The translations under genes and the position numbers were made by a program. Under the pieces are notes generated by a model. That model ran no database searches, was not told the origin of the DNA, and was given only the letters and a program-made list of their open reading frames with translations. Shown in pieces: positions 6,356 to 60,356 of a stretch of 60,356 bases of DNA (its first letter is position 1; each line of letters starts with the position of its first letter). The stretch lies in NCBI GenBank assembly GCA_031379725.1, contig JANNFJ010000380.1, positions 1-60,356 on the forward strand. Reading direction: 5' to 3'. The DNA comes from Calothrix sp. OTE_75_metabat_31. Its GTDB lineage: Bacteria > Cyanobacteriota > Cyanobacteriia > Cyanobacteriales > Nostocaceae.

Positions 6356-6422
6356 CTTACACGCAATTGATTGTTGAAGTTTGAATGTCATAAATATTAC
6401 ACTTTACTCAATGGAGGTGCCA

Positions 6423-6839: not shown

Positions 6840-6899
6840 CAACACGATGACCGCACAAACGCGGGCATCAACCAACATTCATAACAATGCTCGTAATAC

Positions 6900-9566: not shown

Positions 9567-9632
9567 GGAAGTGAAGTTTTACCGTCCCCAAATTAACGCC
9601 AACCTGAGAACCACAAGCACCTATATATTGAT

Positions 9633-27768: not shown

Positions 27769-27799
27769 TGAAAAACCCCCCACAAATAATCAAGGAACA

Positions 27800-31536: not shown

Positions 31537-32274
31537 ATGAATCAAAGCGTAAAAGTACAAGAATTCGGCATTATTGTAGCAATTAAAGATAACAAACCCC
31601 AAATTCTCAACCCCGACTTCCTCAAATATTCGGGAATCGTCCCAGATTCATGGGAACTAGCACGTCAACCTATTTTTACCCAAAGCCTGTCACAAATAGT
31701 TTATACCAACGGTGTCAGCATTATTGCAGAACCCAACCGCGTTATCTTTGTCGAATCCCTTGAAGATAAAAAAGCAGAAGAAATTAGCGTCGCAGCGATC
31801 GCAGAACGCTACATAAAAATGCTACCCAATGCCGAATACCAAGGTTTGGGAGTCAACCCACGCGGTTACGTAGGCTTATCAGGTACAGACACAGATGCAG
31901 CCCGCAAATTCATGAGCGAAGGATTATTTGCCCCTGGAGCATGGCAGCAAGTCGGTACTAGCCCCATGCGTTCCACCGTCAACCTCGTCTACACATTCGA
32001 GCGTGCGCCTTTATACCTGACTATCAACGAAGCAGCATTACGCAATCCCGACGAAACCAGCACCCCCATCGTCTTGTTCTCCGGCAGCTACAGCTACGAA
32101 GTATCGGGAGAAACAGCAAGCGAAAAACTCACCAACTTGCTTGCAGTAATGGGCAACTGGCAAACCGACTTACAAGAATTCACCAATATTATCAACGATA
32201 AATTCCTCGGTCATCAAGCTTCAAGCAGCGTACCCGACGTATTCACTATGAACAACATACCTGCTGCGGTGTAA
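31537..32274 (+). CDS. Hypothetical protein (245 aa)
   Basis: Clean ORF followed by a hairpin terminator. No motif recognised. Confidence 0.55.
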   Translation: MNQSVKVQEFGIIVAIKDNKPQILNPDFLKYSGIVPDSWELARQPIFTQSLSQIVYTNGVSIIAEPNRVIFVESLEDKKAEEISVAAIAERYIKMLPNAEYQGLGVNPRGYVGLSGTDTDAARKFMSEGLFAPGAWQQVGTSPMRSTVNLVYTFERAPLYLTINEAALRNPDETSTPIVLFSGSYSYEVSGETASEKLTNLLAVMGNWQTDLQEFTNIINDKFLGHQASSSVPDVFTMNNIPAAV

Positions 32275-32322: not shown

Positions 32323-32348
32323 AGTGAGGGAGAAATCCCTCACTTTTG
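32323..32348 (+). terminator. Rho-independent terminator between the 245-aa gene and the giant ORF
   Basis: AGTGAGGGA-GAAA-TCCCTCACT followed by TTTGG. Confidence 0.6.
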
Positions 32349-32523
32349 GCGCAATTCGGTGTCTCCAATCACCCACACATAATTTATACCGACTTAATTA
32401 ACAACAAATTTTTAGCCTCACAATCGCCAAAAACACGCGGTTTCTCTTTAAATCGCAATTAATATTTCACTTCAAACTACTTTAAAAAACCACTACAACA
32501 TTACGGGATAAAACGAGGTCAAG

Positions 32524-35500
32524 ATGGCTACTAATAATGAATTTGGGTTGCCCAACGATAATTTATTCAACACCGAATCATCAAATAACAGCGGATTTTC
32601 CGACCCTCTAGCACCGCAAAACAAAGACTTATTAGGAACCAATCAAACATCCTCACCCATTGGTTCACCCAGTACCGACATACCCGATACATATACTAGT
32701 GGTAGCGATAGCAACATTATTGTCCCTAAACCTGCGGATAATTCTCTGTTGGGAGAAAAACCAATAGACACAACAGCAAATACCGATGCATTAACGGGCA
32801 CAGTCGAAGATGCAGCATTGGTAACGGCAGATGCAAATGACCCCTTGTTTAATGGGGGTGGTTTGAATTTTGTAGATGCATTAATGTTTACATCTACTCC
32901 ATACGTCAATGATAGTAGTGACAATCAAGCTGCAATGCAGTTTCGTAGTGCAGCATTGGCAGGAGAACAAAATATAATTTCTCCTGAAAATACTTTATTT
33001 CAGAGTGACTTAACCTTAAACTCGGAGTTGTATCCTGAGCATTTTAATACCTATAAACAGGATTATCAACTAACAGGTTTTACGCCAGGGGAACTCGTTA
33101 GCATTGACCTCAGTTCAACGGAATTTAATACTTATATCGAAGTTATTAATGCTGATACTCAAAAATCTATTGACTCAGATAGTAGCTCTGGTGCGGGTAA
33201 TGACGCTAGAATTACTTTTAAGATTCAGCCTGATATTAATTATATAGTTCGAGTTACAAGTGACAAAGAAGGAGAGACGGGACAGTATACTCTTAAAGCA
33301 ATTAAAATACCAACTATTGCAGTAAATGATGAGAAAATATCAGGTGAATTAACAGCCGATGATTTTGCACATCCAGACCGCTCTAATAGTTTAATAAAAG
33401 AGTACTATATTGATGGTACACAAGTTGGTAGTACATTAGAAATTAATTTATATTCAGCAGCATTTAGAACATATTTAGAAATTTTTGATGCGAGTAACGA
33501 AAATTTAGTTACCTATGATAGGGACTATAGTTCAGATAGCTTTTCGCGTGCAATATTTACACCGCAACCGGGTAAAAATTATATAGCTAGGGTTAGCAGT
33601 GAGGGTTATAATGGCAGCCAAACTGGAGCATATACACTCGATATTAAACCTTTACAGACAATTACGGCAGACGGGGTAGACTTTGATGGTGAACTGAAAA
33701 CCAGCGATGCTAACTTTCCTTTCGTTGAAAATGGTAATATTATAAACTATGCCGACGATTATCAACTTGTATCATTGCCGTTAGGTAAAGTTTTAGAAAT
33801 TAATCTAACTTCGAGCGATTTTGATACATATTTAGAAGTCCTCGACGGTACAGAAAATTATTTATATAGTTATAGTTATGATTACAATTCTGGAGAAGGC
33901 ACTAATTCACGACTGATTTTTGCACCGCAACCAGACAGAAATTATATATTGCGAGTTAGTAATTATAATAGCGATAAAGTTGGAGCGTACAAGCTTAATG
34001 TTAAATCCCTGACAGAAATTTCTGCCCAACAATCTGAAAAAAGGGGTGAACTCAAAGTAAGTGACGCAAACCATCCTAGTAATGAAAAATATTTTGTTAA
34101 CGATTATCAACTCGAACAAGTAACATCCAATAAATTAGTCGAAATTAGGTTAGATTCAGTAGATTTTGGCACATCGGTAGAAGTATACGATGCGCGGAAT
34201 CAATACGTTGTTGCGTCTAAATACCATACAGATGGTTCACCTAATAATTCGTTACTTGTATTTAAACCGCAATCTGGTATTGAATACGTTGTACGGATTA
34301 GCAACAGGACAAGTGACTACACCAGCAACGGTACGGGAAGCTATACCCTCGATGTCAAATCGCTTCCGGAACTAGAGGTTGCTTCTAATGAAATAAGAGA
34401 GGAACTGACGAGTAGCGATACTAGCAACCCAGCACGTACAGGTAGTTTAAGAGATGATTACCAACTAACAAAATTTACATCCAAGTACCCCATCAGCCTT
34501 GTTTTATCATCCGATACATTTGATACTTACCTCCAACTCGTCAATGCTCTAACGCAAGAAATAATCGCATCAAACGATAACAGTGGCACTGGTAATAACT
34601 CGCAACTGAGCTTTATCCCTGACGGATATACTAACTACATCGTTCGAGTAACTAGCGCAAACCCCAACGCTACTGGTAATTATACGCTCAAAGCGGTTGC
34701 AACTTCGGCATCATCCCTGGAAATAGGCGATACAAAAACCGACACATTAAGCGATGGAGATATTATTAACTTTACTAATTCCAATCGGTTGGTTGATGAT
34801 TACAAGCTAGCTGCGACTGTGGCAGGACAAGCAATTCGCCTCATGCTCTCTTCGGATAAATTTGATACAGACTTACAGTTACTTGAGTCCGATACGCAAA
34901 ATATAGTTTTGCAGCATCGCAAATCTAGTAACGGTAGCGGTTCTATGCTAACCTTCATTCCGATTATAGGCAAAAACTATATTGTTAGGGTTGCGAGTGT
35001 TGATGCAGTGGGACGCGGTGACTACCAGTTAAAAGCAGAAACTGTAGATATTCCAGTAATTGAGAATTTTGCCACTCCAATTCCTGGTAGCTTTGACAAT
35101 GGCGATATCATTAATTTAAATGATGGTAAACGTCGATTCGATGAATATCGCCTTCAGCCTCTCACACCAGGTCAATCCTTACGATTAAAATTGGCTGTTG
35201 CAGACAGTTTGAGTAGTTATGTTCAAATTATCAACGCCAATACGCAAACGGTAGTTGTTACAAGTAAAACAGCTTACAGTAGTAACAACATACAGCTAGG
35301 GTTTTTACCAGAAGCTGGTATTAATTATATTGTCAGAGTTGTTAATTCAAATCTTACTGAGGGGAATTATACCCTTGAAGCTGAAGTGTTAGCTGCCAAA
35401 TATATTTCTGCTAACAAAAATGAAGTAATCGTTGGTGCCTTATCTGAAGGTGATATTAATAACCCAACTCTTACAAGAAGATTTGCTGATGACTACCAGC

Positions 35501-53500: not shown

Positions 53501-56500
53501 GTCGGTTTACGCAAGTTACCGCACCCGATGGTAGTTTGGTACGGTACAGCTATGAGGGTAGCAATTTAGTTGCTGCACGTAATCTCTCTAAGGGTAATGC
53601 TAGTCGCTATGGGTATACTGACTCGTTGCTGACTTTGGCAAGTGGTAATCCTGGTACTCCTGGTAGTGCAATTAGCTACGGTACAACTCCGCAAATATCG
53701 AGTATTAAGGGTGACTTGGGTGGTGCGGTGCAATGGAATGGTCAAGCCAACAGTGGGGTTGGTAATGAGCGATATACGTTTAGTTTGAGGGATGGTGAGA
53801 TAGAATCGACTGCTACGGGTATTGTCCTTGTGGGTGTGGATGTTACTGGGGGTGGTGTGCCGTCTGCAGGGTTGACACCAGTAGCTAGTAATGGTAATTA
53901 TGCGCTGTATGCTATTGATAAGGCTGGGTTGAATCAAATTGAAGTTGCGGGGAATGGCGCGTATAATCTGCAACTGACGGTAGCGGGGGATATCAACCGC
54001 GATGGTAATGTTGATGGGGTTGATAGTGGATTGTTGGGGAATGCGATCGCACTCGGTAGTTATAATCAGAACTACGATTTCAACCGCGATGGTAAGTTGA
54101 ATGAGAAGGATGTACAAATTCTCGGTAGCAATTATGGGTTTAGGGCAAATCGTGCCCCTGTTGTTAAACCAACTAACGTACTAACTCACACAGATTTAGA
54201 AACTTTTGTTGAAATTGATACATTAGCAACTGACCCAGAAGGCGACCCAGTATTCTTCCGATTGCTTAACCCTGTTAATGGGGCGGTAATATTTAACCCA
54301 AATGGTGCAGTAGCGAGATTTATGCCCAATGCTGGGTACAACGGTGAGGCGAGTTTTGAAGTTGTTGCAGATGATGGATTTAGTTCATCAACACCCTCTA
54401 AAGTAACGGTTAATGTTAGTAATGCGGCGTTACAAAGTATAGACTTTATAACCCGTGGAATGCACCTCAACACAGGTGATACAGCAGATTTGATACTAGT
54501 TGGGAATTTTGCTGACCAAGAAAATGTATTACTGCCGTACTCGTACTTGCAGTTTGCCGTTGAAAATGCTAACCCAACATCCCCTTTAGTTGCTTCGATA
54601 TCTAATAATGGTGAAGTAACTGGTTTAAATGATGGTGTTGCGTATCTGAAGGCTTCCCGTAACAGCATTAATGCAGTAACGGCACTTCGCGTTGGGGAAA
54701 TACCAGCACCTACAAATCAAGATGAGTTTAACGTTGTTATTGCTGAGGAGCAAGGGTTACAACTTTACCCCGAAGCAGTAACAATGACTCCAGGGATGAC
54801 ACGACGACTGTTGGTGGGGGTTGATGAAAACTTTACACCAAATCTTAGTGCTGCAACCAATGGTACGCGCTACTTTGTTAGCAATTCTGATATCTTGGAA
54901 ATTGATGCAGACGGAAAAATTACCGCACGTAGTAACGGTATTGCTTCGGTAACTGTTATTTATGGTGCTGCCGAATATGTTGTACCCGTCCATGTCAAAA
55001 ACCCAATCGCTGGAGCCAGAGAAATTGGACTCGATGGTGGGGTAGTTCAAGGAAGTGATGGTTCCCAGGTGTTAGTGGGACCAAACACATTTTTTGGGGG
55101 TACACCTGTTAGTATTCAAGAGATACAAAAAAGCACATTTAGCCTACCAATTCCTGAATCGGAGGATTTGCAGTTTGTTAAAGCATTCCGACTGGAATTA
55201 GGTGACATCCCGTTAAACGTTCCCGTACAATTAGCGATTCCTGCTCCAGCTAATTTAGCAGAAGGTACTGAAGTAATTTTCTTGCGCGAAGGAATAGCTC
55301 CAACTGAGTCTGGCGATTGGGAAGCATCCTGGGAGTTGGAAGAGATTGGAATTGTGGGAGCCGATGGCATGATTCGGACACAATCTCCTCCATTGCCCGG
55401 TATTTTAAGAACTGGGAACCGCGTAGCATTAGCATCTCCAAATCCAAAATATACCTTTACCAAAGTTCGTTTTGAATTACCTCCTGCTACGCTTGGGGCA
55501 CTTGCAAATTTAGTATTAACAACTAGCGTTATTTCAACGGTTGCAACATCTGTAATCAACGGTGCTTCGATGTCTTTAGCTCGCTCTGGTGCGGGAGCAC
55601 TGAGTTCTTTAAACCCAGCTAGTTTGAACTCATTTAAAGAACAAGCACAGCAAAAACTGATAAACACTCTTGCGTCTGTGCAAAAGTTTGTAAAACTGAA
55701 ATCGGGTAGCGCAGGTGCAAAAGCTTTACAAGAAGGCGTTAGCCCAGAACTATTAAAACAATGGGCAGCGATGAATCAGACTGCTAAAAATATTAAGTTA
55801 CTAAAAGCAGCTGCACAACAACCTGTTGGGATTCTTGCAGGTGTAGCTGCTGCATTCGGTGGTTCTGCGAATGCATCTGATGGAAGTCGTCTTTCAACCT
55901 CCGCTTCCAGACCTGATTTTGCCTCTGGGTTGGCAGGATTTGGATTAGTTTCAGGGATTGCTGGCTTCATCGCTGGTGGAGCCGGTGCTAGTGTGGCCTC
56001 TACTGCAACAACTCTGGCTACAAATTTAACAGCTTTGGCAGCAGTAAATGCTTTAATGGCACGCAATGTCAAGACCATGACCTTGAGAATATTCCAAGTG
56101 CCTTCGGTTGGACTACCTGAAGTTACAAAAGCAGGAGCAGAAATTAATTCCAGTGGAATTTACGAAATTAAGAATGTAATTCGAGAACCCAAATTAAGTT
56201 TTGATGTAGAAGCATTAACACCACCAATTATCGAATCCGCAGAGTTTGAATTTGTCTCTGAGGGAGAAACCAAAGAGCCTGTTGTTTTCTTGACAGGTAG
56301 TAATTTCCTAAATGGAACAGATGACTTAGGAGGACGCTTAAAAGATTTAGTTGTTGATTTTACAAGTGGTGGTCGAACTTATTCGGCACCAGTATGGGTG
56401 GAAAAAAGCCAAGCACTGGCATACAACCGCTTCAAAATTGCCGTCAAACCACCTGAAATGTTCCCACTTTCTGAAGCCAGCATTTCTTTACGACGACCAC

Positions 56501-59500
56501 AAAAGCTGCGAGTCGGCGATGACCCATCTAAATTTGAAACCATTCAATTAGAGTCACAAAGGCAAATAACTTTATCGCAACCCGAAGTTGAATATGCCCT
56601 TGTTGCACGTCGTTGGTCGGACAAAATAGATGTTATCGACCTCGCAAATCCCAAAATGATTGTGGGCAATACACCCGAAGGAAGTGCTAATTTCTTATCA
56701 GCAAGTATTCCAATTGGCACCCGCACGGAAATTACAGGTTCGCAACGTCCGAGAGAAGTAGCCGCAACTAAGGATGCTGGTCGTGCTTACGCTATTTTAG
56801 ACCGTGGTGGTGTTGCACTCCTAGACTTAATTGCATTCCGTCAAGTTGATACCGACTCTGTTGCTGAAGGTGTTAATACAATTGAGCTTCCGCCTGGTGC
56901 AGTTCCGCAATCTATCGTGATTGAACCACACAGTAATTATGCATATATTGCTGATGGTGTTAAGGATGTAATTTATGTTCTCGACATAAATCCTGGTTCT
57001 GCAAACTACCACAAGGTGCAAACAATCAAGGTTGATGCTCCCAATGGTTTGCGGAAGTTGGCAATTAGTAGCGATGGTCGCAAGCTTTATGGTACGGCAC
57101 CAAATAATCCACAAGGAAAAATTGTTGTTGTTAATATTGACCCTAACGATAAACCAAGTAATCCAGCAACTAATACCCGCAAGTGGCATACTCAAATTGG
57201 TGCAATTTCCACCGCTACTCGCAGCATTGAGGGTATTGAGGCAACATCCGACCCGAAACGCATGGTCTTTACGCATCGCTACTCTGAACCATACGGATTT
57301 GGCTCACTTACTGTTTCTAATGATGACCCCTTAAATTTCACAGCAATTGCAGATAAACCCACAAACTTAAAGCTCAAGTTTGGAGAATTTGAAGTCAACG
57401 AAGCTCGAAATGTTGTAATCACCCGTGACCAGCGATTTGCATTTGTTATCGGTTATAACGGGTATCAAATAAATCGAGGTTTTGATTTAATTGGGGAAAA
57501 TCCTTATAGCCCAGCAACTATCGGCAAATACTATGGTACCAGTATTGGAATTATCCAAGACCCGTTAGAAAATCCAGAACTAATTGCTGCGACTCGACCA
57601 ATTCCAATGGGACTTGGTGTAGATTTATCGCTCACTAGCGATGATAGGTATCTCACTGCAACTTTACCTGGTGTTGATGCATATTTTGTATTCGATGTTG
57701 AGGAAATTGAACGCACGATTAATCTTCTTGCAACAGACAATCAAAATGATTTTTTTGTTGACCGAAAAAGAAAATCTGGTGAAATTTATCAAGGTAAATT
57801 TCCAAGTAATGAACTAATTGGTTTCCAGCAGCTAGAACGTGCAAATCTTGGTGATTTATTCAATATCCCCATTGATGACATCAACCCCTTAATTGATATC
57901 GCAGCCAGATTTGAAGTTACCAGGCTTATAGAAGAACGAAAAAATGTATACAGCATAGAGAAAACTGTTAAGGATATCGATTACGGTGTTCCTAATGATG
58001 CCACTATTAAGAAAAATGCACCAATTGGTCGAGGTGGTAATCCCAGAAGCGTTGACTCTGCTGCACGTAGAGATTGGATCGAGGGGTTTAAAGTTGATGC
58101 AAAACCAAAGCTAGACACTATTATCTCTGATTTGACCCCTACTTTTGAGTGGAGTTTTGATACCTCGATTATTGAAAGTTTCGATAAAATTCGAGAGATT
58201 AAACTCTACGTTAGTACTTTTGATGCATACGAGGGACTTGCACCAAATGATGGTTGGAAACCAACTAAGGATACTACTCCAGTTTGGAGTAATACAGGTA
58301 TTCTAAGCCGCAGTGACTATAACCCTAATCGTATTCTTTCTGCAACCTGGTTAAAAGATAAAAATGGTTGGTTCTGGAATGATGAAAGTGGTAAGCCTAC
58401 AAACCAACCAATCAAAAATAGTGAGGATTTTGAGACAAGCTATTTACGTTTTACGCTACCAAATAGCCGTAAACTGACTGCCGGACAGCAGTATTATTGG
58501 GCAATCGAGGCTTACACTGATAATGGTCTATTTGATGATGACACGGGAGCATTTAAAACTCAGTTACCAGACCCATTGATGGGTACATCGGATAGTTTCC
58601 GTAGCGTAACAATTTTAACCCATGATGTTAATGAGCTAAATCGGGATATTTATGAGACGGGATATAGTATTTCTGGTGAAATTTTAGGAAGCGGTTTCCA
58701 AGGTGCTGTTCTTAAATATGATGCCCTTACTGGTTACTGGTTCCCTGTGAAGAAAGATGGTATTACAGCATTAAGTGATAACTTGAATCCGAAAGTAAAT
58801 AAAACTAACTTACTTGAGCAATTACAAAGTTTCCTCGGTGGTTATGCTGGTAAACCTTTAGTTTTGGTTGCTGATTGGTCGCTAAGTGATGGGGCAAACT
58901 CTGGTTTTGCTGAAGGTGCTGCGGATGCTATGTTTGCTTCGTTGGTACAGTTAGACCAGCGCCTTGGTGGTACTGTTGGCGGCTACGATACCTCTGGGAA
59001 ACTCAACCGTACTCAAGGTAAGATATTTAATTCCCCGCTGCATTTCATTGGTTTTGGGCGCGGTGCGGTAGTAAATACTGAGATTGTCCAGCGTTTAGGA
59101 ACTTTCTATCCGTATGCTGGTGGTACTGTTACAGTAGGCGGCAAACCTGACCCCAAACGCGACCTTCAAGTAACAACGGTTAATCCTTATCAGTACGACC
59201 CAAATTCATCAGTACGCCCAAGTAATATCGCTGACCCCACAGTTACAACTTGGGAAAATGTTACCTATGCAGATAATTACTTCTACAGCAGAGGTGGTTC
59301 TCCAAGGTTCCAAGCATTAACTACGGCTGATTGGAATGTTCCACTTAATAGTATCGAAGAGGGAAGCACTAAACAATCTGCGTCGTCTTGGTATACGGGA
59401 ACGGTGGACTTAAGCGATAGTAAAGATGTTTTCCGTCGTCTCGGTGATTTGGATGCTGCTGGTCGTACCCCAAGTGCGAAGTGGTATACTCCCGACCATA

Positions 59501-60356
59501 CAGACGCTAATTTTGATGGAACTAATGGCTTGGCACCTTGGGAAGGTATTGGCACAGGTTGGTTCTACTCCGCCCTTGGTGGCGGGCTTGAGCAACGTCC
59601 GTATTTAGATAGTAAGAAAGCCAAAAATGCGCTAGGAAATTTTGATGACTATATAGATGACAAGCGGAAAAAAGTAACGTTTGATAACACTATTACAAGT
59701 ACTACTGACTCGCGTATTAGCACAAGGATGCATGGGGATTACGCGGTGCCGACGCTGTTTAATGGAGACTTTGATGCTGTTACTTTTAGCGATGGCGCAA
59801 GGCAATCTATCCCTGGTTGGTCGTTGTATGGTAGTAACGGTGGGACTAATCAAATTACATCGCAAGCGGCTTTGAAAAAATGGACAAAAATAACTGGTTT
59901 AAAAAATCTGGCTAATTATCCAGATAATTATGCTTTGGAATTAAGTTCCGGTCAAAGTATTGTTCATAATAGATTTGTTGTTCCTGATTGGGGAAGTTTG
60001 AGATTTGACTTACACACAGGAGACGTTGATAAAGGTACTTCCCGTGGTCAATTGAAGGTTTACTTAGATGAGGTAGGTACTGCACCAAGTACGACTTCGT
60101 TACAAATCATCAATCTGCAAGAAGCAGAGGGTATATCTGGTGACTATGCGGCTGACCGTTGGCGAATTGGCTATGGGGAGCAAGGGTTTGAGACGTTTAC
60201 CATTGATGTGCCGGATGCTTTGCGTGGGAAGGTGATGACGCTTAGGTTTGAACTTGATGGGGGTGGAACGGTTTACCTAGATGATGTGTTCTTTAAAAGT
60301 CAGCATTTGTTGTTCGGGAATCCGACTGAGGCGAGAAATCCTAGTGATGCAAAGTC
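32524..60356 (+). CDS. Giant multidomain surface/secreted adhesin-like protein, 3' end outside window (at least 9,277 codons)
   Basis: In-frame stop TAA at 32509-32511, and GAGG 5 nt before ATG 32524. I read the whole frame (position mod 3 = 1) codon by codon from 38461 to 60356, and from 32524 to about 33660, without a stop. The ORF track shows no closed + ORF in this frame anywhere in 32.5-60.4 kb. All listed + ORFs there are in the mod-3 = 2 frame and the rest are antisense. That pattern is expected if one ORF never closes inside the window. Confidence 0.9.
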   Translation, partial: MATNNEFGLPNDNLFNTESSNNSGFSDPLAPQNKDLLGTNQTSSPIGSPSTDIPDTYTSGSDSNIIVPKPADNSLLGEKPIDTTANTDALTGTVEDAALVTADANDPLFNGGGLNFVDALMFTSTPYVNDSSDNQAAMQFRSAALAGEQNIISPENTLFQSDLTLNSELYPEHFNTYKQDYQLTGFTPGELVSIDLSSTEFNTYIEVINADTQKSIDSDSSSGAGNDARITFKIQPDINYIVRVTSDKEGETGQYTLKAIKIPTIAVNDEKISGELTADDFAHPDRSNSLIKEYYIDGTQVGSTLEINLYSAAFRTYLEIFDASNENLVTYDRDYSSDSFSRAIFTPQPGKNYIARVSSEGYNGSQTGAYTLDIKPLQTITADGVDFDGELKTSDANFPFVENGNIINYADDYQLVSLPLGKVLEINLTSSDFDTYLEVLDGTENYLYSYSYDYNSGEGTNSRLIFAPQPDRNYILRVSNYNSDKVGAYKLNVKSLTEISAQQSEKRGELKVSDANHPSNEKYFVNDYQLEQVTSNKLVEIRLDSVDFGTSVEVYDARNQYVVASKYHTDGSPNNSLLVFKPQSGIEYVVRISNRTSDYTSNGTGSYTLDVKSLPELEVASNEIREELTSSDTSNPARTGSLRDDYQLTKFTSKYPISLVLSSDTFDTYLQLVNALTQEIIASNDNSGTGNNSQLSFIPDGYTNYIVRVTSANPNATGNYTLKAVATSASSLEIGDTKTDTLSDGDIINFTNSNRLVDDYKLAATVAGQAIRLMLSSDKFDTDLQLLESDTQNIVLQHRKSSNGSGSMLTFIPIIGKNYIVRVASVDAVGRGDYQLKAETVDIPVIENFATPIPGSFDNGDIINLNDGKRRFDEYRLQPLTPGQSLRLKLAVADSLSSYVQIINANTQTVVVTSKTAYSSNNIQLGFLPEAGINYIVRVVNSNLTEGNYTLEAEVLAAKYISANKNEVIVGALSEGDINNPTLTRRFADDYQLTDFTVGKEVQLVLKSPDFDSYLQLVNADTNKPILQDDDYGFNSSQQSFIKFIPQTGINYIVRVTSYSSNTTGNYLVSAQAIKTLPFTGESASGNLSSSDVQHSGLSGRYSDDYKLDTELLVGKPVIFTLASNDFNPQFQLINADTQQTIVSNSETSVNNTTQLKFVPQGGINYAVRVTSRDINEQGNYTLKAEPYALPEIAALNGEKNDNLQAGDTKNSEYSGSFADDYKLNITGINPGTVIELQLESSSFTPKLQLINASNNEVINTNYLSGVGDNSRLVFTPQTGVNYIVRVTDYSGGGKGEYKLKANPLNTIVVNEPIAKTGNLNSTASPNYPGYSSEYFINEYQIQGFKAGELIDIKLSSNDFNASLELFDASKLNDPIISDDNSGGNSNARLIFSPEANKSYLVRVRTPGPYESGEYNLSATSLATISARKGNKNAELNATEDLNYPNTDSKMDEYQLTDLTIGEDVYVSVKSDDFDTYLEIYEIENHNLKYLAGNDNSGGGTNSQIIFTPESGKKYLARVSNYSDSTRFGNYTLQSSLPITSPQTRSRIDGALSDSDVNNPNRSSRKSDNYQLANFTVGQPISIILSSLDFDAYLQLINGDTGRIIDFNDNYNSTNNSRLTFTPTEGTNYVVRVTTSEVEQLGNYTLHTREVLSALGDKIDGKISETDAKHPNYGYYIDEYELSDLTIGQFFALELKAENFNPYLELINRDTDEIITVYGSGSSRIVFTPSNGINYAIRVTDVYKTGDYTLTSTKLPTLSAITGTVNVSDTRLSDTDAKYPGTDYLIDEYQLTGLTTGETVYAGVTSPDFNTYLEIVDASNGSYLIDDYDSGDGTNSRFYFTPELGKKYLVRVGNYGTNGTGAYTLSTRKQRTEISLSDTSFKQIDGSITSEDELDAANSYYSDEYLLTSLPTNKRIVLDISSEEFYTLIELLDANTGKTISNSFTRDSSRNSKLIFTPQQGVNYAVRVRGDNGGTGNYTLNVNELAQVVPNSPYGSIILADQPVGYWSLDETTGEIATDYSGYGNNASYHNGVTLGTTGISLQAATFDGENDTLDIPINSPETNYTYELWFKTREATTGISIVRDQDADYQHDRVLYLKDGNIYHGLWSTEIINSTGKNYADDEWHYVTVVVESSVGQKVYVDGELVASGNKGESNFTNDTRIVAGETLASEYYWGIRSYFKGALDEIALYNYVLPESRIDARYEAFLSQQTDKLPDLAITPVTYPSSPVTWGQTIPVSWIVQNIGNVPTTATWTDKVYFSTDKNLSIDDQIAGTFLPNLSNPLAAKVGQYTLGGNIVIPNTLDPNKNWYLLFVTDADYKQLETNSNNNVQSVALNVNIPNLRYFNNFESPVGDEWTNQTVDKTYKNVFSSFLGRFSGDGTTLTLNTTPGNTYRLEFDFYAIDSWDGGNITPVGPDYLDISVDDTRIFRESFSNVLDYPQSYNRQSDAGGISNDLGFNTSFGDSIYRRIPINFTATGNTTQIRFADYGLQGIDDESWGIDNVRVFFTGVNAKLPNLKVTDLEVDSTAKFGQTVDISWYTSNIGTDSVDGIWSERVWLSKDSDSIFEPQKGDYELRLITPTTSEQIAANSKSTQRKLQLELPLDNKFQPGNYYIIVETDAGKTVREFKEDDNVLPSSSITIAFPPLPDLTVSKVNISQNGIPGESIDVSWQLSNIGDVTLNGTWNEDIYLIPVQNFSADGSFSFDSIQPIKTVNRTATIGAKQQLDSFRETIEIPGDIIEGEYRVVVITDTGFPNDKIVEYDNATNNMSISTQTVRVGRVDLVPEITTLPTNGTSGETIKLNWKVTLTGAVGVSRELVDRIYLLDTDTPSSYDLRADNAVAEVRKTRTLSANGSYTEEIDIPLPIELSGRKYVFVVTDADNQLKEASSTEDAENNNTIGRSVQINLGEYADLAVSNITATPQLTLRDQLSGPATLQVNWTVTNIGTGAGKETQWYDRVIASSDNIAGNEDDIVLGTFLRSSNLAKDSSYNKSETIQLPSNFTGKYQLFVTTDAPVRNQNNEIIYSVFENGLEANNTASAPSPFAVALKPYADLIVTKVNFEGNATTAQTGRLLKLNWEVKNQGIAVTDSASWSDTVQLARMNPDGTLSIVTTLDYFDRTGVLGNTEGNNTYTRSRDVFIPYNTESGTYYLVVTTGGSNNPYEFIYYNDGNSKVSPAIQITKGTTPDLYVSRVSTVEKAVAGSKIDVTWQVFNSNAPNTGDAGGEWTDNLYLRNLSNPAEIISLGSFNQTNGLQPGRFYTRTEQVDINPYLQGTYEVVVETNSVLDRYGNRGVFEEANATDNNSLKSTSNITISLPTRPDLRVNSITVPATTVVAGGTATASFEIINLSPIEARGKWVDNVYLSLDGSIDSSDILIGSFTNDSAISGQGKYSHNITNFEIPKYFRGKAHIIVQTDASNAIDEYPQDDNNILVREFNVQSLLPADLVTSNVIAPNQAFAGSTIKVKYKVTNSGSGETDRESWTDSVWLTRTNTNRPSAANQDGGLQDIKLGDFTRNGGLQTKNDFNGTNYYENEVEVTLPGELQGGGWYITVWSDANGDVYEDSFSNNTNQNDVNNLDSNNYSSRAIEVLLPAAPDLQVTQVTQITPAANATTGKPFKVTWTVENKGSADITSGTWYDEVYLTDAPTLEATQEKWLLGTVARSEQLGRYATYTGELETVLSPGAKGKYIVVTTNTSGYPQIWEGPYTNNNTKSTDTNVTSIPADFTVTNIKTFTPNYSGDPTTIEWTVTNNGAPVWTGTRYWYDEVWISKTADFTAEYNAGKATWLGLFAQNLPTAGLGTGQSYTQKQNIVLPAGFKDDYYIHVFTNESRLRDSNYFSGLPRGNNRYDNNQWRDFIYPITAYEDTSNNSKSQKIPVIYREADLAISNLQVETDKTGVNPKSGETIAVTWTVKNTGTRDTRESTWYDRVYLSVGKTDNTLDAKDIFLGEFKRNGILNKDDSYTQRQQFILPDGIFGDFKVLVFTDSNYAENKYGNDNLGFEGGIDRQLGRVPEFDKEVNNQAVADITIDLTIPPDLQVTALNLGQQTAISGQKLNLSYTVTNVSAGSTPTRQSIWTDLIYLSRDNKLDLIADRYLGNIQHDGGLAASQSYSVTNAEFNLPTDLTGSYYVFVVTDPQQSNPRGIVYEGSNEANNAKYSDNPLIIQLPNPVDLEVQTITTPGSSKVGEAVTVKWTVANNSTNSITGEWTDAVYLSEDNKWDISDRLLGRTTYNGTLTGSNATDGSNRYELSLDNILLPGVTPSNGLLPGGAYRIIVRNDIFNEVYEGVNGGETNNTKPGSSTFEIKAEELKLNIESTTTLSKGQDRLFALNLQAGQTIHVTTDGSDGSGNEIYIGFGTSPTSTNYISASRGRIGPDQSAIISNSLQGTYYVLIRGTDSTNAPVTLKAEALPFSVTNIDTDRGGDSRYVTTTISGAQFDANTTVKLVRPGIGEFIPANVKIIDSTQIAAVFDLSNAPHGLYDVVVRKTTAAGITEATLPYRYLVERAIETDVTVGLGGPHVLAPGDVGNFQVSVQSLTNIDTPYVHFSFGIPELGDNPLLELPYVKFTSNLRGQPDRNPNGKLSDVPWSEIVSDVNLNGQILAPGYVLDLPNAGFAGMNFNVQTYEGLKELLQREPLLLEDINPGEIAFKFNIVATATAMTRGEFVAEQTREALRLRTAILADKTATPALTNLAASSTTWTNAFLAALEEVGILRPDNQAPPIRENQQIISLIATLATGLLVGPAGKEINSTGNLVSFFSKVREWYGHDASKIGSPGIPNLQQFDKGLTQKTHSQSFNIYVPFKDARVDLPQGVDVPAPTFNSAFTTPSSASNLVSLTGPIGYGSNNIIPQGVDLPYTIRFENAATAPTAVGKVQLVSKLDDDLDERTFQLGGIRLGDIQINIPGGRSSFQGDFDYSATKGFILRVSAGVDLATKTASWLLEAIDPNTGEVMNNPNVGILLPNNANGAGAGMVSYAIAPKSDLITGTEITSQAKVLFNTAAPIDTNRTISRIDGAAPTTTITATSLDGGNTTANVSGNTNNALASNLTPTITGNTDYRVKWNATDDNSGSGVKHVTVYVAENGGDFKVWKSQTTDKEGIFSGKATSKYEFLVLATDNAGNKQAPPLGITAPNDGYSVNLGTIPTVGQTTQQILPPTAPTQLISTNQLFLQAKAENNTPAVLPTTRKPEFEQVLRPFTANAFATGIPKSNGNIGALALAILDDGTVLASGGANRGSIYRFNSLGGTATTPLITLPQPIYDMAVDRNGSIWATTGGGSLLQLNPQTGQIVKSYGESITQAIAINSTTGLIYVSSGNGIEIFNPVTETFTHYSDLRVDSLAFAPDGSLWGTSWPDRGIVARFDAKGRAQQMLSSSDPIDSLAFGATNSRLAGLAFVSTNKGDVLMVDLATMQHVKVATGKTGATWGENIEVTKDGRILISHSNQIDVLNPTLAPKVAATNPVKDAIIALPLNSINVTFDSDMFVGVTNDLASVLNPNNYQLIGSNGNINNAVSVSYDVARRSALLGFNSFDAGNYEFRVLQNIKSSAGVELEAAFSEKFTTVSNFSSLVDFSFGNARSDRANSTISYDVTITSKADQDLLLPVMLLLDPSTTFTGTPNGAVGRQNGAYLLDLKDSLPDGRLKPGQSTTTRTITVNNPDALRVEFTPGIYAMPYPNMAPVITSTALTTATVGQRYNYQVAANDPDGSVLGYLLYDAPTGMQVDNNGLISWTPVAGSANKSDVVLYTYDLRGGYTTQSFTINVLGANNKPVFNSPAVSGGTITTNSNTGSTTTTGGTTTTSPTSPLPTPFLIRGAEGKTLQIKVGATDADKDKLTYWADNLPGGSVFDPSTGILTWTPNYNQAGTYENIQFVANDGKERVTQTVNILVAPTNQAPTLVRPADKIVREGEFARIQLKATDADGTALTYFSNLLPGGATLDPTTGLFEWTPAYFQAGEFEIPFNVTDGETITTQTTKITVLNVNAAPVFEGLTSWEAQEGENVRFRAFAFDPDNPGFVPQERNGKGELTILEGSDASVTHTVSGLPAGAKFDVDTAMFTWTPGYTSAGIYNVTFTATDDGNGTGVSKVTSIVVPITIRNTNRAPLFDNVALAANGISTIKTITTFNPDGTPVVDKTAFTNVDVNRGEIKEITFKVTDLESDNLQLNLELERNAGEGIPSFIKPLRNNNDGTWTLRVEPGNEAFGNNYSFKLVATEVRTDGTTALSSDLTFNVNIIAPNSAPQIGYIGDKVAVVGESLEFLVNTADRDQDPLNYTVTGLPNGVSSTLTRTAIYGQSLFKWTPTAGNIGTYNISIKVVDSGNNGKGGVLDDTETFKINVRTSNNAPVLGTLGNRTIQEGETLSLQLAATDSDGDAIRYTARNLPTGAVVDARTGLLTWTPDYSQAGIYDSIEIIASDGNKSVTKSLALTVENTNQAPIFTPLAVQYGQENNRVTFKLVADDADRAGVEYTAVGTLPPGAILNTATGEFTWKPNYDQGGEYVLKFQAKDPQGAVALQDVVVRIANVNRAPSLTVSDRAVALGGKLEFKLNGSDQDKNTTLKYSAVNLPEGAILDVTTGQFSWQPSPGQVGNYSVTFNVSDGETITNATALVRVALASVPPTVTLDLTPSFPAVPGQKVVVQTTAAGVAAITSLTTTVAGQAVTLDTFGRFEFTPTAPGRVVVEAIATDADGYIGRTSTVVKVRDINDNSAPVVSFAAGFDGSKVGNTTNITGTIADTNLDEWVLEIAEFGSDKFTTIARGNQSQNGVLSQFDPGRYENGFYQVRLKATDISGRTSTKESVIEVSGKTKPGAYVRKETDLTTTIGGVTLNLVRSYNSLNAGETGTFGSGWSLANIDTNIQTNIQPTGREELGVYNPLRTGTRLYLTAPNGERVGFTFAPTKVTIPGATYYTPAWVADSGVSYTLESVDSKLIQSGSSFYDMKTGFAYNPASGRFDGYEYKLTASDGNVYYLSSKKGVVEQVATNGTKLVYSDSGITSSTGETIRFVKDFLGRFTQVTAPDGSLVRYSYEGSNLVAARNLSKGNASRYGYTDSLLTLASGNPGTPGSAISYGTTPQISSIKGDLGGAVQWNGQANSGVGNERYTFSLRDGEIESTATGIVLVGVDVTGGGVPSAGLTPVASNGNYALYAIDKAGLNQIEVAGNGAYNLQLTVAGDINRDGNVDGVDSGLLGNAIALGSYNQNYDFNRDGKLNEKDVQILGSNYGFRANRAPVVKPTNVLTHTDLETFVEIDTLATDPEGDPVFFRLLNPVNGAVIFNPNGAVARFMPNAGYNGEASFEVVADDGFSSSTPSKVTVNVSNAALQSIDFITRGMHLNTGDTADLILVGNFADQENVLLPYSYLQFAVENANPTSPLVASISNNGEVTGLNDGVAYLKASRNSINAVTALRVGEIPAPTNQDEFNVVIAEEQGLQLYPEAVTMTPGMTRRLLVGVDENFTPNLSAATNGTRYFVSNSDILEIDADGKITARSNGIASVTVIYGAAEYVVPVHVKNPIAGAREIGLDGGVVQGSDGSQVLVGPNTFFGGTPVSIQEIQKSTFSLPIPESEDLQFVKAFRLELGDIPLNVPVQLAIPAPANLAEGTEVIFLREGIAPTESGDWEASWELEEIGIVGADGMIRTQSPPLPGILRTGNRVALASPNPKYTFTKVRFELPPATLGALANLVLTTSVISTVATSVINGASMSLARSGAGALSSLNPASLNSFKEQAQQKLINTLASVQKFVKLKSGSAGAKALQEGVSPELLKQWAAMNQTAKNIKLLKAAAQQPVGILAGVAAAFGGSANASDGSRLSTSASRPDFASGLAGFGLVSGIAGFIAGGAGASVASTATTLATNLTALAAVNALMARNVKTMTLRIFQVPSVGLPEVTKAGAEINSSGIYEIKNVIREPKLSFDVEALTPPIIESAEFEFVSEGETKEPVVFLTGSNFLNGTDDLGGRLKDLVVDFTSGGRTYSAPVWVEKSQALAYNRFKIAVKPPEMFPLSEASISLRRPQKLRVGDDPSKFETIQLESQRQITLSQPEVEYALVARRWSDKIDVIDLANPKMIVGNTPEGSANFLSASIPIGTRTEITGSQRPREVAATKDAGRAYAILDRGGVALLDLIAFRQVDTDSVAEGVNTIELPPGAVPQSIVIEPHSNYAYIADGVKDVIYVLDINPGSANYHKVQTIKVDAPNGLRKLAISSDGRKLYGTAPNNPQGKIVVVNIDPNDKPSNPATNTRKWHTQIGAISTATRSIEGIEATSDPKRMVFTHRYSEPYGFGSLTVSNDDPLNFTAIADKPTNLKLKFGEFEVNEARNVVITRDQRFAFVIGYNGYQINRGFDLIGENPYSPATIGKYYGTSIGIIQDPLENPELIAATRPIPMGLGVDLSLTSDDRYLTATLPGVDAYFVFDVEEIERTINLLATDNQNDFFVDRKRKSGEIYQGKFPSNELIGFQQLERANLGDLFNIPIDDINPLIDIAARFEVTRLIEERKNVYSIEKTVKDIDYGVPNDATIKKNAPIGRGGNPRSVDSAARRDWIEGFKVDAKPKLDTIISDLTPTFEWSFDTSIIESFDKIREIKLYVSTFDAYEGLAPNDGWKPTKDTTPVWSNTGILSRSDYNPNRILSATWLKDKNGWFWNDESGKPTNQPIKNSEDFETSYLRFTLPNSRKLTAGQQYYWAIEAYTDNGLFDDDTGAFKTQLPDPLMGTSDSFRSVTILTHDVNELNRDIYETGYSISGEILGSGFQGAVLKYDALTGYWFPVKKDGITALSDNLNPKVNKTNLLEQLQSFLGGYAGKPLVLVADWSLSDGANSGFAEGAADAMFASLVQLDQRLGGTVGGYDTSGKLNRTQGKIFNSPLHFIGFGRGAVVNTEIVQRLGTFYPYAGGTVTVGGKPDPKRDLQVTTVNPYQYDPNSSVRPSNIADPTVTTWENVTYADNYFYSRGGSPRFQALTTADWNVPLNSIEEGSTKQSASSWYTGTVDLSDSKDVFRRLGDLDAAGRTPSAKWYTPDHTDANFDGTNGLAPWEGIGTGWFYSALGGGLEQRPYLDSKKAKNALGNFDDYIDDKRKKVTFDNTITSTTDSRISTRMHGDYAVPTLFNGDFDAVTFSDGARQSIPGWSLYGSNGGTNQITSQAALKKWTKITGLKNLANYPDNYALELSSGQSIVHNRFVVPDWGSLRFDLHTGDVDKGTSRGQLKVYLDEVGTAPSTTSLQIINLQEAEGISGDYAADRWRIGYGEQGFETFTIDVPDALRGKVMTLRFELDGGGTVYLDDVFFKSQHLLFGNPTEARNPSDAK
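32980..38466 (+). repeat. 16 tandem pre-peptidase C-terminal (PPC)-type domains, period about 343 bp (in-frame, inside the giant ORF)
   Basis: Each unit follows the pattern D(D/E)YQLT..G..V.I.L.S..FDTYL(Q/E)(L/V)(I/V)NA.T......D.NSG.G.NS.L.F.P..G.NY.VRVTS.....TGNYTL. The unit ends GxY(T/K)L fall near 33290, 33640, 34000, 34350, 34690, 35030, 35380, 35730, 36070, 36420, 36770, 37120, 37460, 37780, 38120 and 38460. Confidence 0.75.
38500..39150 (+). other. LamG / concanavalin-A-like lectin domain of the giant protein
   Basis: LADQPVGYWSLDETTGEIATDYSGYGNNASY...ATFDGENDTLDI...YTYELWFK...WHYVTVVV...VYVDGELVASG...FKGALDEIALYNYVL is the typical Laminin_G_3 pattern. Confidence 0.65.
39166..45420 (+). 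repeat. About 14 CARDB-like domains, interrupted at about 39541-40062 by an unrelated jelly-roll-like insert
   Basis: Units start with (P/A)DL.(V/I) linkers near 39170, 40066, 40450, 40860, 41240, 41670, 42070, 42470, 42840, 43300, 43680, 44155, 44620 and 45010. They contain W.V.N.G ... W.D.VYLS.D ... Y(Y/L).(V/F)V.TD ... E..E.NN. Confidence 0.65.
48150..48845 (+). other. Beta-propeller (NHL/SMP-30-like) region of the giant protein
   Basis: Repeated about 40-aa blades: IYDMAVDRNGSIWATT, ITQAIAINSTTGLIYVSS, VDSLAFAPDGSLWGTS, IDSLAFGATNSRLAGLAFVS and NIEVTKDGRILIS. Confidence 0.5.
49520..52310 (+). repeat. About 8 cadherin-like 'putative Ig' (He_PIG/dystroglycan-type) domains
   Basis: Recurrent pattern A.D.D.D.L.Y....LP.GA..D..TG...W(T/K/Q)P...Q.G.Y......DG, followed by N.AP linkers. 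The W(T/K/Q)P motifs fall near 49680, 50050, 50330, 50660, 51380, 51670, 51945 and 52215. Confidence 0.6.
52900..53640 (+). other. Rhs/YD-repeat-like segment of the giant protein
   Basis: LNLVRSYNSLNAGETGTFGSGWSL is the typical entry motif of Rhs/YD regions. It is followed by YD-type repeats: GNVYYLSSKKG, GETIRFVKDFLGRFTQVTAPDGSLVRYSYEGSNLV and ASRYGYT. Confidence 0.5.
53985..54140 (+). other. Dockerin-type duplicated Ca-binding loop module
   Basis: GDINRDGNVDGVDSGLL ... YDFNRDGKLNEKDVQILGSNYG gives two D-x-N-x-D-G-x-(V/L)-(D/N) loops. Confidence 0.55.
56590..57700 (+). other. Second beta-propeller region (YVTN/LVIVD-like repeats)
   Basis: PQSIVIEPHSNYAYIADGVKDVIYVLDI, LRKLAISSDGRKLYGTA...KIVVVNI, ARNVVITRDQRFAFVIG and GVDLSLTSDDRYLTATLPGVDAYFVFDV. 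Confidence 0.5.
58600..59130 (+). other. Alpha/beta-hydrolase (lipase)-like domain lacking the nucleophile Ser
   Basis: KPLVLVADWS...AADAMFASLVQLDQ...SPLHFIGFGRGAVVNTEIVQRLG aligns by eye with the lipase pattern HLIGHSLGA. The G-x-S-x-G elbow reads G-F-G-R-G. Confidence 0.4.

Follow-up and report, generated by a model that had tools for sequence, protein, structure and literature searches.

A giant open reading frame (ORF) was found on the forward strand of the 60,356-nt contig JANNFJ010000380.1 of Calothrix sp. OTE_75_metabat_31; the whole of this stretch is called the window below. The frame covers positions 32524-60356 and holds 9,277 sense codons with zero stops, from ATG 32524 to the last complete codon at 60354, and its 3' end lies beyond the window. 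The nearest in-frame stop on the 5' side is TAA 32509-32511, ATG 32524 is the earliest possible start past it, and TTG 32548 is the next candidate. The original prediction had described a single uninterrupted ORF of more than 27.8 kb that was unlisted in the ORF track, with GAGG 5 nt before the ATG and an in-frame TAA at 32509; the uninterrupted frame was borne out, with the window edge cutting it, and both signals were read in the sequence. The prediction had also warned that the region could be misread as a gene desert. This risk is real, since the program-made ORF list, which lacks the giant frame, drops by design the ORFs that run off the end of the source, and the desert appearance is therefore an artefact of the track.

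Two complete orthologues were found, both on closed plasmid assemblies: BAZ65136.1 of Calothrix sp. NIES-4105 plasmid3 (34,794-bp coding sequence, 11,597 amino acids (aa), annotated as 'peptidase S8/S53'; locus L001) and BDA76511.1 of Calothrix sp. PCC 7716 p5 (30,984-bp coding sequence, 10,327 aa, 'hypothetical protein'; locus L002). The window ORF is collinear with both over aa ~2760-9277, with 58-83% identity over aa 3000-7500, and shares with them the ~245-aa neighbour and the plasmid backbone, which places it in the same orthologue group. Over the scaffold that they have in common, the two Calothrix giants show 82-97% mutual identity. The window ORF departs from both in its N-terminal third, with 16 PPC-like units against one short match (aa ~743-933) in NIES-4105 and none in PCC 7716, and by this comparison the 16-unit array is an expansion specific to the window plasmid. 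No S8 domain was found in the scanned parts of the NIES-4105 giant despite its annotation. The lengths of the orthologues agree with the original prediction that the frame continues past the window. Since the window edge corresponds to residue ~9,550 of the NIES-4105 giant and ~8,030 of the PCC 7716 giant, ~2,000-2,300 aa are probably missing, and the full-length product would probably have ~11,300-11,600 aa and ~1.2 MDa and be acidic and cysteine-free, the window holding the first ~80% of it.

The giant gene is real and under selection. Compared with the two Calothrix orthologues, the ratio ω was 0.08-0.31 in all collinear segments of aa 3001-9270 (pN well below pS), with synonymous sites near saturation in these comparisons. 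The three codon positions differ in base composition consistently across all 28 kb of the frame, Pfam domains are spread along the entire translation, and the window sequence contains 0 N. Tandem Repeats Finder reported no tandem repeats in 32000-60356, and the longest direct DNA repeats in the gene are 36-65 nt at 63-78% identity, so the proposal that the repeat array might be an assembly artefact is unlikely to hold. At the protein level, where the product was compared in tiles, the repeats are only 30-43% identical to each other, which makes collapse or expansion during assembly implausible. Four antisense ORFs of 160-197 aa at 52225-55667 were considered as nested genes and rejected as shadow ORFs, having no Pfam match, and no gene with the pentapeptide motif was found within the window. 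The translated part of the giant has a mass of 1,004 kDa and a pI of 4.6. It contains 0 cysteines in 9,277 residues, with 0.4% Met and 0.5% His; the orthologues contain 2 cysteines (both within the variable cassette described below) and 0.

From aa ~7300 to the edge the giant carries a variable cassette. Identity to the orthologues was ~78-80% at aa 6,901-7,200, ~58% at 7,201-7,500 and 24-57% beyond, and relative to BAZ65136.1 and BDA76511.1 the toxin cassette of the window is thus a different allele. The number of loci matched per ORF tile rose from ~11 to 73 across the cassette, from aa ~7150 on. The glycine-rich hydrophobic segment that had been predicted was located in it at aa ~7640-7850 and is a candidate membrane-insertion or translocation element; its length varies, with 45 aa in the relative P0074 versus 193 aa in the window. 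Short forms of ~1,700 aa begin at the position matching aa 7921 (blastp of P0010, P0014, P0038 and others), and PF10282 is precomputed for many relatives. The last ~2,000 aa of the window ORF belong to a toxin-body family.

The pre-toxin module (aa 8281-9277) gave no Pfam or NCBIfam match. Its structure was modelled with a mean predicted local distance difference test score (pLDDT) of 62 and a predicted template-modelling score (pTM) of 0.59, and two folds were recognized in the model by Foldseek; their placement on the residue ranges of Table 1 was inferred from the secondary structure of the model. The nucleophile elbow of the alpha/beta-hydrolase-like core lies at ~59044-59070 (aa 8841-8849, HFIGFGRGA) and has Gly in the Ser position. 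The window copy thus reads GFGRG in place of the G-x-S-x-G of lipases and esterases, and by its sequence the domain is without the nucleophile Ser. The lipase-like domain of the original prediction was therefore right as to the alpha/beta-hydrolase fold, but not as to the nucleophile. Among 46 aligned sequences the elbow residue is Ser in 33 (GFSRG) and Gly in 13 (mostly GFGQG or GFGRG), which suggests that the Gly-elbow sequences form a subgroup with a non-catalytic hydrolase-like domain. In the relatives the constant region ends at aa ~9257-9275 for either toxin tip, so the window stops nearly at the junction of body and tip. The nuclease domain of the closest relative, L003, starts ~10 aa beyond the point matching the window end.

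The family was collected by searching the final 400 aa of the ORF against GTDB representative genomes, which gave 75 loci, nearly all from filamentous or colonial cyanobacteria; 77 loci were fetched. Directly behind the module, 73 of the 75 have an Endonuclease_NS-like segment, as do the reference loci L001 and L002. A protein search gave 89 relatives, many of them with 1,100-1,720 aa and with propeller, module and C-terminal Endonuclease_NS; in 4 of the 89, the nuclease is replaced by PF18760 ART-PolyVal (ART, ADP-ribosyltransferase). A constant body with alternative toxin tips was thus observed in relatives of aa 7921-9277, the tip of the window gene itself lying beyond the edge. The catalytic His of the nuclease is visible (consensus RGHM.P; ERGHLTP in NIES-4105, PGHLAP in L003), and a search with the strict DRGH pattern missed most of the nuclease relatives. 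Of 72 loci compared, the nuclease stands at the extreme C-terminus in 53 (short forms), 16 are giants and 3 were undetermined; the giants read on for 700-2,400 aa from the nuclease start, so that their toxin is internal. Several of the short forms are also followed by orphan tips, which are ORFs that start within the module, end in Endonuclease_NS, have no promoter of their own and precede pentapeptide genes. One example starts with MRGDFAIPTLFGGNFDAV, as compared with MHGDYAVPTLFNGDFDAV in the window. Such cassettes of orphan tip and immunity gene were seen with the short forms L008, L015, L030, L057 and L079, and were not observed for giant forms. The closest relative, L003, is 71% identical on a 3.3-kb contig and reads through the nuclease domain, a pentapeptide-antisense-like stretch and HEIGH.

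Two observations on the distribution of the family can be added. The sole locus with module, nuclease and pentapeptide gene that is assigned outside cyanobacteria is L021, from the metagenome-assembled genome (MAG) Chloroflexaceae bacterium SM1_2_4 (JAAUTE010000107.1), and this taxon reflects either horizontal transfer or a binning error; L029 is labelled 'uncultured bacterium'. The Prochloron MAGs L042 and L058, from an ascidian symbiont, carry giant-type read-through forms with the variant HELLH, and the L042 locus is chromosomal.

The nuclease tips are accompanied by pentapeptide-repeat genes. On the 3' side of the short-form nuclease ORFs, 1-4 genes are found, mostly convergent, whose products start with EELLRRYAAGERDF and are assigned to the pentapeptide family with Pfam E-values of 2e-18 to 1.5e-54; of the 77 fetched loci, 73 have a pentapeptide-repeat gene with this N-terminus behind the nuclease. 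Behind toxins with the ART tip stand ~67-aa ORFs and an OGFr_N protein instead; the nuclease tips within these arrays still have pentapeptide genes of their own. This tip-specific pairing matches what is expected for a cognate immunity protein. The pentapeptide protein is thus a candidate immunity protein that probably inhibits the nuclease, possibly through DNA mimicry, and the small ORFs and the OGFr_N protein are candidate immunity or accessory genes of the ART tip. As a separate observation, L079 (Microcoleus anatoxicus CP120853.1) and L080 have ART-PolyVal tips followed by two ORFs of ~66-68 aa and a 178-aa OGFr_N protein.

In the giants the pentapeptide gene lies inside the toxin gene. 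An intact pentapeptide ORF with its own ATG was found antisense and wholly within the giant frame, 0.5-1 kb past the nuclease, in 8 of 11 loci in one test, and in L017 and L058 as well; the nested ORFs encode 162-239 aa and have Pfam E-values of 1e-22 to 4e-43. For L004 and L020, the only pair similar enough for an overlap test, ω was 0.17 in the pentapeptide frame and 1.16 in the giant frame over the same codons, with 0.21-0.25 in the flanks of the giant frame. By this codon-level measure the nested gene is under purifying selection. The phase is constant, every giant codon being the reverse complement of a pentapeptide codon, so that any TTA, CTA or TCA in the nested gene would place a stop in the giant frame. 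These codons number 0 in the nested genes, whereas 52 free-standing pentapeptide genes contain on average 7.8 per 170 codons, with a minimum of 3. Since no free-standing gene would leave the opposite frame open, the openness does not simply result from the pentapeptide sequence and must be maintained, and the simplest reason is that the toxin must stay translationally fused to the part that follows. Over NIES-4105 aa ~7,950-10,200, which comprises the hydrophobic segment, propeller, module, nuclease and nested gene, the giants of NIES-4105 and PCC 7716 are 30-55% identical or unalignable, while the flanks are 82-97% identical. The divergence of this stretch between otherwise so similar proteins indicates that toxin and antidote move as one block within a conserved scaffold.

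Behind the nested gene, 12 of 13 giant-type loci examined share the segment ITDLPTGQLAEA...GWFID.TPFD..EF...YDLLTTILHEMGHLxGIIxG, which L017 lacks. It holds a metzincin-like HExxHxxGxx(D/E) motif and is a candidate self-processing protease. In NIES-4105 this segment is followed by a Big_9/cadherin domain, five PKD domains, four Calx-beta domains and a terminal Ig-like domain. Genes for a PpiC-type peptidyl-prolyl isomerase (PPIase), an ABC exporter and an HlyD-family protein lie directly 3' of the giant in L001 and L002; L012 and L020 show part of this set within their flanks, and in these four genomes the sequence extends far enough to reach it. The exporter has 985 aa with cyclic nucleotide monophosphate (cNMP)-binding, C39-like, transmembrane and ATPase domains, and its best PDB match is HlyB (5e-161). 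In the C39-like domain of the NIES-4105 homologue, Ala and Ser stand at the positions of PCAT1 Cys21 and His99, as read from a weak alignment (E 0.31), and the domain looks like the non-proteolytic one of RTX-type exporters rather than like the active peptidase of HetC (PMC10986499). Between the giant and the exporter genes of L001, the gene at 6980-7750 (+) is annotated as 'filamentous hemagglutinin outer membrane protein' and is actually a family 2 glycosyltransferase (Pfam 1e-32).

Alignment of the giant N-terminus with the two Calothrix orthologues revealed neither a Sec signal nor a double-glycine leader, in agreement with the predicted lack of a Sec-type signal. A tblastn search of the N-terminal 189 aa against plasmids gave no match, probably due to the low-complexity filter. 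A route by double-glycine leader and PCAT was rejected, because the conserved N-terminus has no leader and the catalytic residues of the C39 domain are replaced. The GGxGxD motif was found neither in the window ORF nor in the PCC 7716 giant, with one isolated match in NIES-4105; a substrate of RTX type was rejected, there being no RTX repeats in the window part or in the orthologues. Since the protein has no cysteine, an acidic pI and neither of the two leaders, and exporter genes adjoin the giant in relatives, type I secretion by a C-terminal signal is the most likely mode of export on these sequence features.

Table 1. Features of the giant gene and of its neighbours in the window
Feature	Position	Strand	Evidence or remark
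DUF3854 protein, 1,167 aa	19815-23318	+	plasmid backbone
MobV relaxase fused to DUF3991 and Toprim	25909-27783	-	plasmid backbone
AIPR-family (abortive-infection-type) protein	29567-30829	+	two genes 5' of the giant
245-aa gene	31537-32274	+	directly 5' of the giant; kept upstream of the Calothrix orthologues
Ribosome-binding site GAGG	32515-32518	+	5 bases 5' of ATG 32524-32526
N-terminal 188 aa, low-complexity, Asn/Ser/Thr/Pro-rich	32524-33087	+	first ~60 aa conserved, M..N.FGLPN.N.F...F.DP (orthologue alignment)
16 tandem ~115-aa PPC-like beta-sandwich units, aa 189-2001	33088-38526	+	iterated hidden Markov model (HMM)
LamG/concanavalin-A-like lectin domain, aa ~2016-2200	38569-39123	+	Laminin_G_3 1e-18; Toxin_R_bind_N 4e-6
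14 CARDB-like Ig-fold domains, aa 2217-4280	39172-45363	+	Pfam CARDB 4e-31; iterated HMM count
Central scaffold, aa 4281-5673	45364-49542	+	weak PPC, DUF7619, weak propeller-like stretch, Big_5
8 He_PIG/Big_9/cadherin-like domains, aa 5674-6588	49543-52287	+	He_PIG 1e-64; Big_9 9e-41; NCBIfam tandem-95 repeat
Ig-like stretch, then DUF6531 and few degenerate RHS/YD-like repeats, aa 6589-7150	52288-53973	+	Pfam and inspection
Dockerin-like Ca-binding motif, aa 7154-7200, and cadherin-like domain, aa 7209-7298	53983-54417	+	Dockerin_1 1e-6; Big_9/Cadherin_5
Variable toxin cassette, aa ~7300 to edge	54421-60356	+	identity drop vs orthologues; rise of tile matches
Hydrophobic Gly/Ala-rich segment, aa ~7640-7850	55441-56073	+	hydropathy scan; glycine-zipper-like runs, e.g. 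GIAGFIAGGAG
Start of minimal toxin unit, aa 7921, then lactonase/YncE-type beta-propeller, aa ~8030-8280	56284-57363	+	blastp; Pfam Lactonase 2.8e-4
Pre-toxin module, ~1,000 aa, aa 8281-9277	57364-60354	+	family conservation; model
Alpha/beta-hydrolase-like core, aa ~8695-8940	58606-59343	+	Foldseek 3lp5, prob 0.99
CBM/'cleaved-adhesin'-like jelly-roll, aa ~9095-9257	59806-60294	+	Foldseek CBM6, CBM4, gingipain K1-K3, prob 1.0

The part of the giant before the cassette (aa 1 to ~7300) is a long stalk of surface-type domains (Table 1), and most of the mosaic given in the original prediction was recovered there. The count of 16 PPC units was reproduced by iterated HMM. The units score below the Pfam PPC cut-off, however, and the model of one of them (pLDDT 85) matched best the collagen-binding domains of ColG/ColH and the PPC domain 5sv5, at weak E-values of 0.05-0.4. 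The LamG domain was detected (Laminin_G_3), the approximate number of CARDB-like domains proved to be exactly 14, and about eight cadherin-like domains became nine of the He_PIG/Big_9/cadherin type by iterated HMM. The central scaffold is 67-83% identical to the Calothrix orthologues, with ω of 0.08-0.12. NCBIfam models run on ten tiles of the giant returned almost nothing besides the tandem-95 repeat, and the predicted propellers and Big_2 are present as Pfam matches, but weak ones. As to the predicted YD repeats, DUF6531 (1.3e-5, above the Pfam cut-off) and RHS_repeat (0.032, below it) were both found at aa ~6790-7050, and only one Y.YD..G motif exists in the entire protein. One DUF6531 with a few degenerate RHS-like repeats was thus retained and a full Rhs/YD shell was rejected. 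A protein of the CdiA type, exported by two-partner secretion (TPS), was also rejected, because the ORF has no TPS (haemagglutination activity) domain or FHA Pfam family. The predicted dockerin-like region, which scored over the Pfam cut-off, has DxNxDG motifs at aa 7156 and 7185, and together with the ninth cadherin-like domain it forms the final part of the conserved scaffold.

The giant gene sits on a plasmid of the Calothrix/Rivularia type (Nostocales). The upstream 32 kb encode a MobV relaxase-DUF3991-Toprim fusion, a DUF3854 protein, an integrase, an AIPR protein and a pair of TIR protein and short prokaryotic Argonaute (pAgo). The window DNA has matches of 76-88% identity in plasmids of Calothrix, Aulosira and Nodularia, the relaxase region being 84-88% identical to plasmids of Calothrix PCC 6303 and PCC 7716; backbone genes and plasmid matches together support the plasmid-like character that had been predicted. 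The ~245-aa gene precedes the giant gene in the window, L001 and L002 alike, and relatives of its product are also encoded near the giants of L024 and L035. In a three-way alignment, the 245-aa protein of the window is a close match to the 247-aa upstream protein of NIES-4105 and has clear kinship to the 241-aa one; the Calothrix orthologues carry two such paralogues 5' of the giant (L001 42998-44558, -) and the window just one. The 245-aa protein had no Pfam or PADLOC match, and proteins of this family could be an accessory factor for the giant.

Just 3' of the 245-aa gene, at 32326-32351, a perfect 8-bp stem (GTGAGGGA / TCCCTCAC) with loop GAAA is followed by TTTTGG. It looks like a terminator, though a terminator consensus scan did not report it, and a terminator-like stem at this place suggests that the giant has its own promoter in the ~170 nt before its ATG. 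The AIPR gene, the 245-aa gene and the start of the giant gene recur on a 5.7-kb Logan contig (L078, SRR20217213). At 1541-4811 (-), the window encodes a short pAgo of 531 aa (PADLOC pAgo class I, 7e-147) directly 3' of its TIR-domain partner, a protein of 560 aa with Pfam TIR_2 and PADLOC Aga PNTD-type matches. From these matches, the pair is a SPARTA-like TIR-APAZ/short-pAgo defence pair on the plasmid of the giant gene.

Taken as a whole, the findings are probably best explained by a functional plasmid gene for a stalk with a swappable toxin cassette, which has a nuclease and a nested antidote and is exported by a type I secretion system (T1SS). The reality of the gene, its domain architecture, its orthology and collinearity with the Calothrix giants and its membership in the toxin-body family were observed directly. 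Residues 1 to ~7300, with Ig-like, PPC-like, CARDB, lectin and cadherin-like domains, would form a stalk that reaches and binds the surface of the target. From residue ~7300 on, the swappable cassette would consist of the glycine-zipper segment, the beta-propeller, the alpha/beta-hydrolase-like domain and the jelly-roll binding domain. Just past the window, homology predicts an Endonuclease_NS (NucA-type) DNase domain, and next a linker whose opposite strand would encode the pentapeptide-repeat protein, perhaps a DNA mimic, that inhibits the nuclease in the producer. A metzincin-like HExxH domain would come next and may cut the toxin free. The PKD and Calx-beta domains would come last, with a C-terminal end that would be recognized by the adjacent T1SS of ABC exporter, HlyD-type fusion protein and PpiC-type PPIase. 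Type I export, immunity through the pentapeptide protein, release of the toxin by proteolysis and the kind of target are our inferences. A further-reaching proposal, which we find plausible but hold only tentatively, is that these genes represent an undescribed class of megadalton T1SS-exported weapon, in which the cassette sits in the middle of an adhesin and carries an antisense nested gene for a DNA-mimic immunity protein, the giant frame being kept open by purging of TTA, CTA and TCA.

Other explanations were weighed against this one. The product might be a giant adhesin, or a matrix protein, of the LapA or SiiE kind, whose nuclease degrades extracellular DNA for nutrient scavenging or biofilm remodelling and whose pentapeptide partner is a NuiA-like housekeeping inhibitor that shields the producer ahead of export, with no delivery into other cells. 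Domains of adhesin type do make up most of the protein, ~2,000 aa with PKD and Calx-beta domains stand behind the internal nuclease, T1SS neighbours and the lack of cysteine suit giant adhesins, and the secreted NucA nuclease of Anabaena with its NuiA inhibitor is a precedent. We nevertheless regard a pure adhesin as unlikely, because the tip is exchangeable for an ADP-ribosyltransferase-type domain with different 3' genes, arrays of orphan tips and inhibitors stand 3' of the short forms, and it is in the cassette that two giants, nearly identical elsewhere, are hypervariable; these features indicate a diversifying conflict, which is unexpected for a scavenging enzyme. More doubtful still is the idea that the long frame does not yield one protein, the cassette being made from an internal start near aa 7921 and the stalk and the PKD/Calx-beta part being separate products or relics of fusion. 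The exact start of the ~1,700-aa Oscillatoriales short forms at the match of aa ~7921 would fit it, as would the separate ORFs for the upstream DUF4114 and Big_2 parts in some Oscillatoriales loci and the neutrality of the giant frame at the amino-acid level over the nested gene. Yet the frame is open over 28-35 kb in at least 16 loci despite exchange of the cassette, which is possible only if the nested gene never uses three common codons. Both flanks show purifying selection in the giant frame as well, and under type I secretion the C-terminal signal must be physically joined to the toxin. Only generic grounds speak for a pseudogene, a frame open by chance or a chimeric assembly, namely the cut at the window edge, the repetition at the protein level and the absence from the ORF track; this reading is effectively refuted by the low ω along the frame, Pfam domains throughout, the two complete orthologues in closed plasmids and the lack of long DNA repeats.

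Several points weigh against the preferred explanation of a stalk with a swappable toxin cassette. The window itself contains no nuclease, nested gene, HExxH motif or T1SS gene; these are known, like the pairing of nuclease and pentapeptide gene and the orphan tips, from relatives. Cassettes swap between close relatives, so the window plasmid could carry another tip. An internal toxin domain is atypical for polymorphic toxins. The hydrolase-like domain of the window lacks the nucleophile Ser, and the model of the module is of moderate confidence only. The selection result for the overlap comes from the single pair L004/L020, and the zero count of TTA, CTA and TCA arises partly by construction, since nesting was defined by an open spanning frame. 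The T1SS genes adjoin the giant in only four genomes (L001, L002, L012 and L020) and were not found in the flanks of the giants L004, L024, L035 and L067; without RTX repeats, the type I secretion signal would be non-canonical.

In conclusion, the window gene is a new member of a family of giant proteins, encoded on cyanobacterial plasmids, that has been deposited but not described. ORFs of giant size on such plasmids were already on record, the orthologues being annotated only as 'peptidase' or 'hypothetical protein'; the database records of BAZ65136.1 and BDA76511.1 mention no toxin, nested gene or type I secretion of the protein. In the literature searched for giant cyanobacterial genes, pentapeptide immunity and nested immunity genes, no description of the family or of the nesting was found, and a preprint on giant genes treats no cyanobacterial examples (doi 10.1101/2023.11.21.568195). 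The toxin family is widespread in mat- and bloom-forming filamentous cyanobacteria (Microcoleus, Tychonema, Nostoc, Calothrix, Prochloron), where antagonism and kin discrimination are little studied. Pentapeptide-repeat proteins, which are abundant in cyanobacteria and mostly without known function, are proposed here as nuclease immunity factors. The antisense nested gene is conserved, has statistical support and bears a codon-level signature by which both frames stay open; bacteria seldom have overlaps of this kind, and reported cases are often contested. Neither the truncated giant nor the nested gene is picked up by annotation pipelines and ORF tracks. If the further-reaching proposal is true, inheritance and exchange would keep toxin and antidote together, with the toxin still fused to the C-terminal export signal, and the window gene would be a member whose nuclease and nested gene start a few codons past 60356. 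With a toxin-delivery cassette in the last quarter of the ORF, the adhesion and biofilm read-outs that had been suggested for a knockout would overlook what is more likely to be seen, namely antagonism or self-protection.

The family resembles polymorphic toxins (Rhs, CdiA, Tox-NucA) in its constant body, exchangeable Endonuclease_NS/ART tips, tip-specific 3' gene, orphan arrays and hypervariable region near the toxin. The giants differ in that the toxin is internal, with another 1,400-2,400 aa behind it, that export is apparently of type I and that the toxin ORF harbours the candidate immunity gene on its antisense strand. For Tox-NucA, the table of Zhang et al. (2012) gives neither cyanobacteria nor pentapeptide-repeat immunity, and the text does not use the term 'T1SS' (PMC3482391). 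The window ORF further differs from known polymorphic toxins in having no PAAR, TPS, LXG or full Rhs shell.

The pentapeptide-repeat proteins MfpA and Qnr are DNA mimics. YjbI-like pentapeptide genes adjoin GH-E His-Me nuclease toxins, with their function stated as unknown (Jablonska et al. 2017, PMC5714182). The loci described here are similar in that a pentapeptide gene stands next to a His-Me-finger nuclease toxin, and DNA mimicry would be a plausible block of a non-specific nuclease; they differ in the nuclease clade (Endonuclease_NS/NucA), the phylum and the secretion route. In the operons of pore-forming colicins, the immunity gene lies on the opposite strand, intergenic between the colicin and lysis genes, an arrangement that permits immunity to be constitutive and independent of toxin induction. 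Unlike there, the candidate immunity gene of the giant lies within the toxin frame itself, and this frame has to be free of stops over the whole nested gene.

Salmonella SiiE and Pseudomonas LapA have arrays of Ig-like Ca-binding domains, are acidic and cysteine-poor, lack a Sec signal, have few or no RTX repeats and are encoded next to ABC and HlyD genes. The stalk of the giant, its acidic cysteine-free composition and its lack of a Sec signal are alike. Adhesins of this type have, to our knowledge, neither a toxin cassette nor an immunity gene, and no retention module of the LapG/LapD type was identified in the giant. The MARTX toxins of Vibrio are very large T1SS substrates with repeat-flanked internal effectors, a hydrophobic or glycine-rich region proposed for translocation and a built-in releasing protease. 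An internal effector in an apparent T1SS giant, a hydrophobic glycine-rich region and a built-in candidate protease are also features of the present family. The window ORF and its orthologues differ from MARTX in lacking RTX and MARTX A/B/C repeats, and the candidate protease is of the HExxH type and not a cysteine protease. We know of no MARTX toxin with an immunity gene, so the family appears to combine a MARTX-like architecture, with the toxin cassette carried inside a type I-secreted giant, with an immunity gene.

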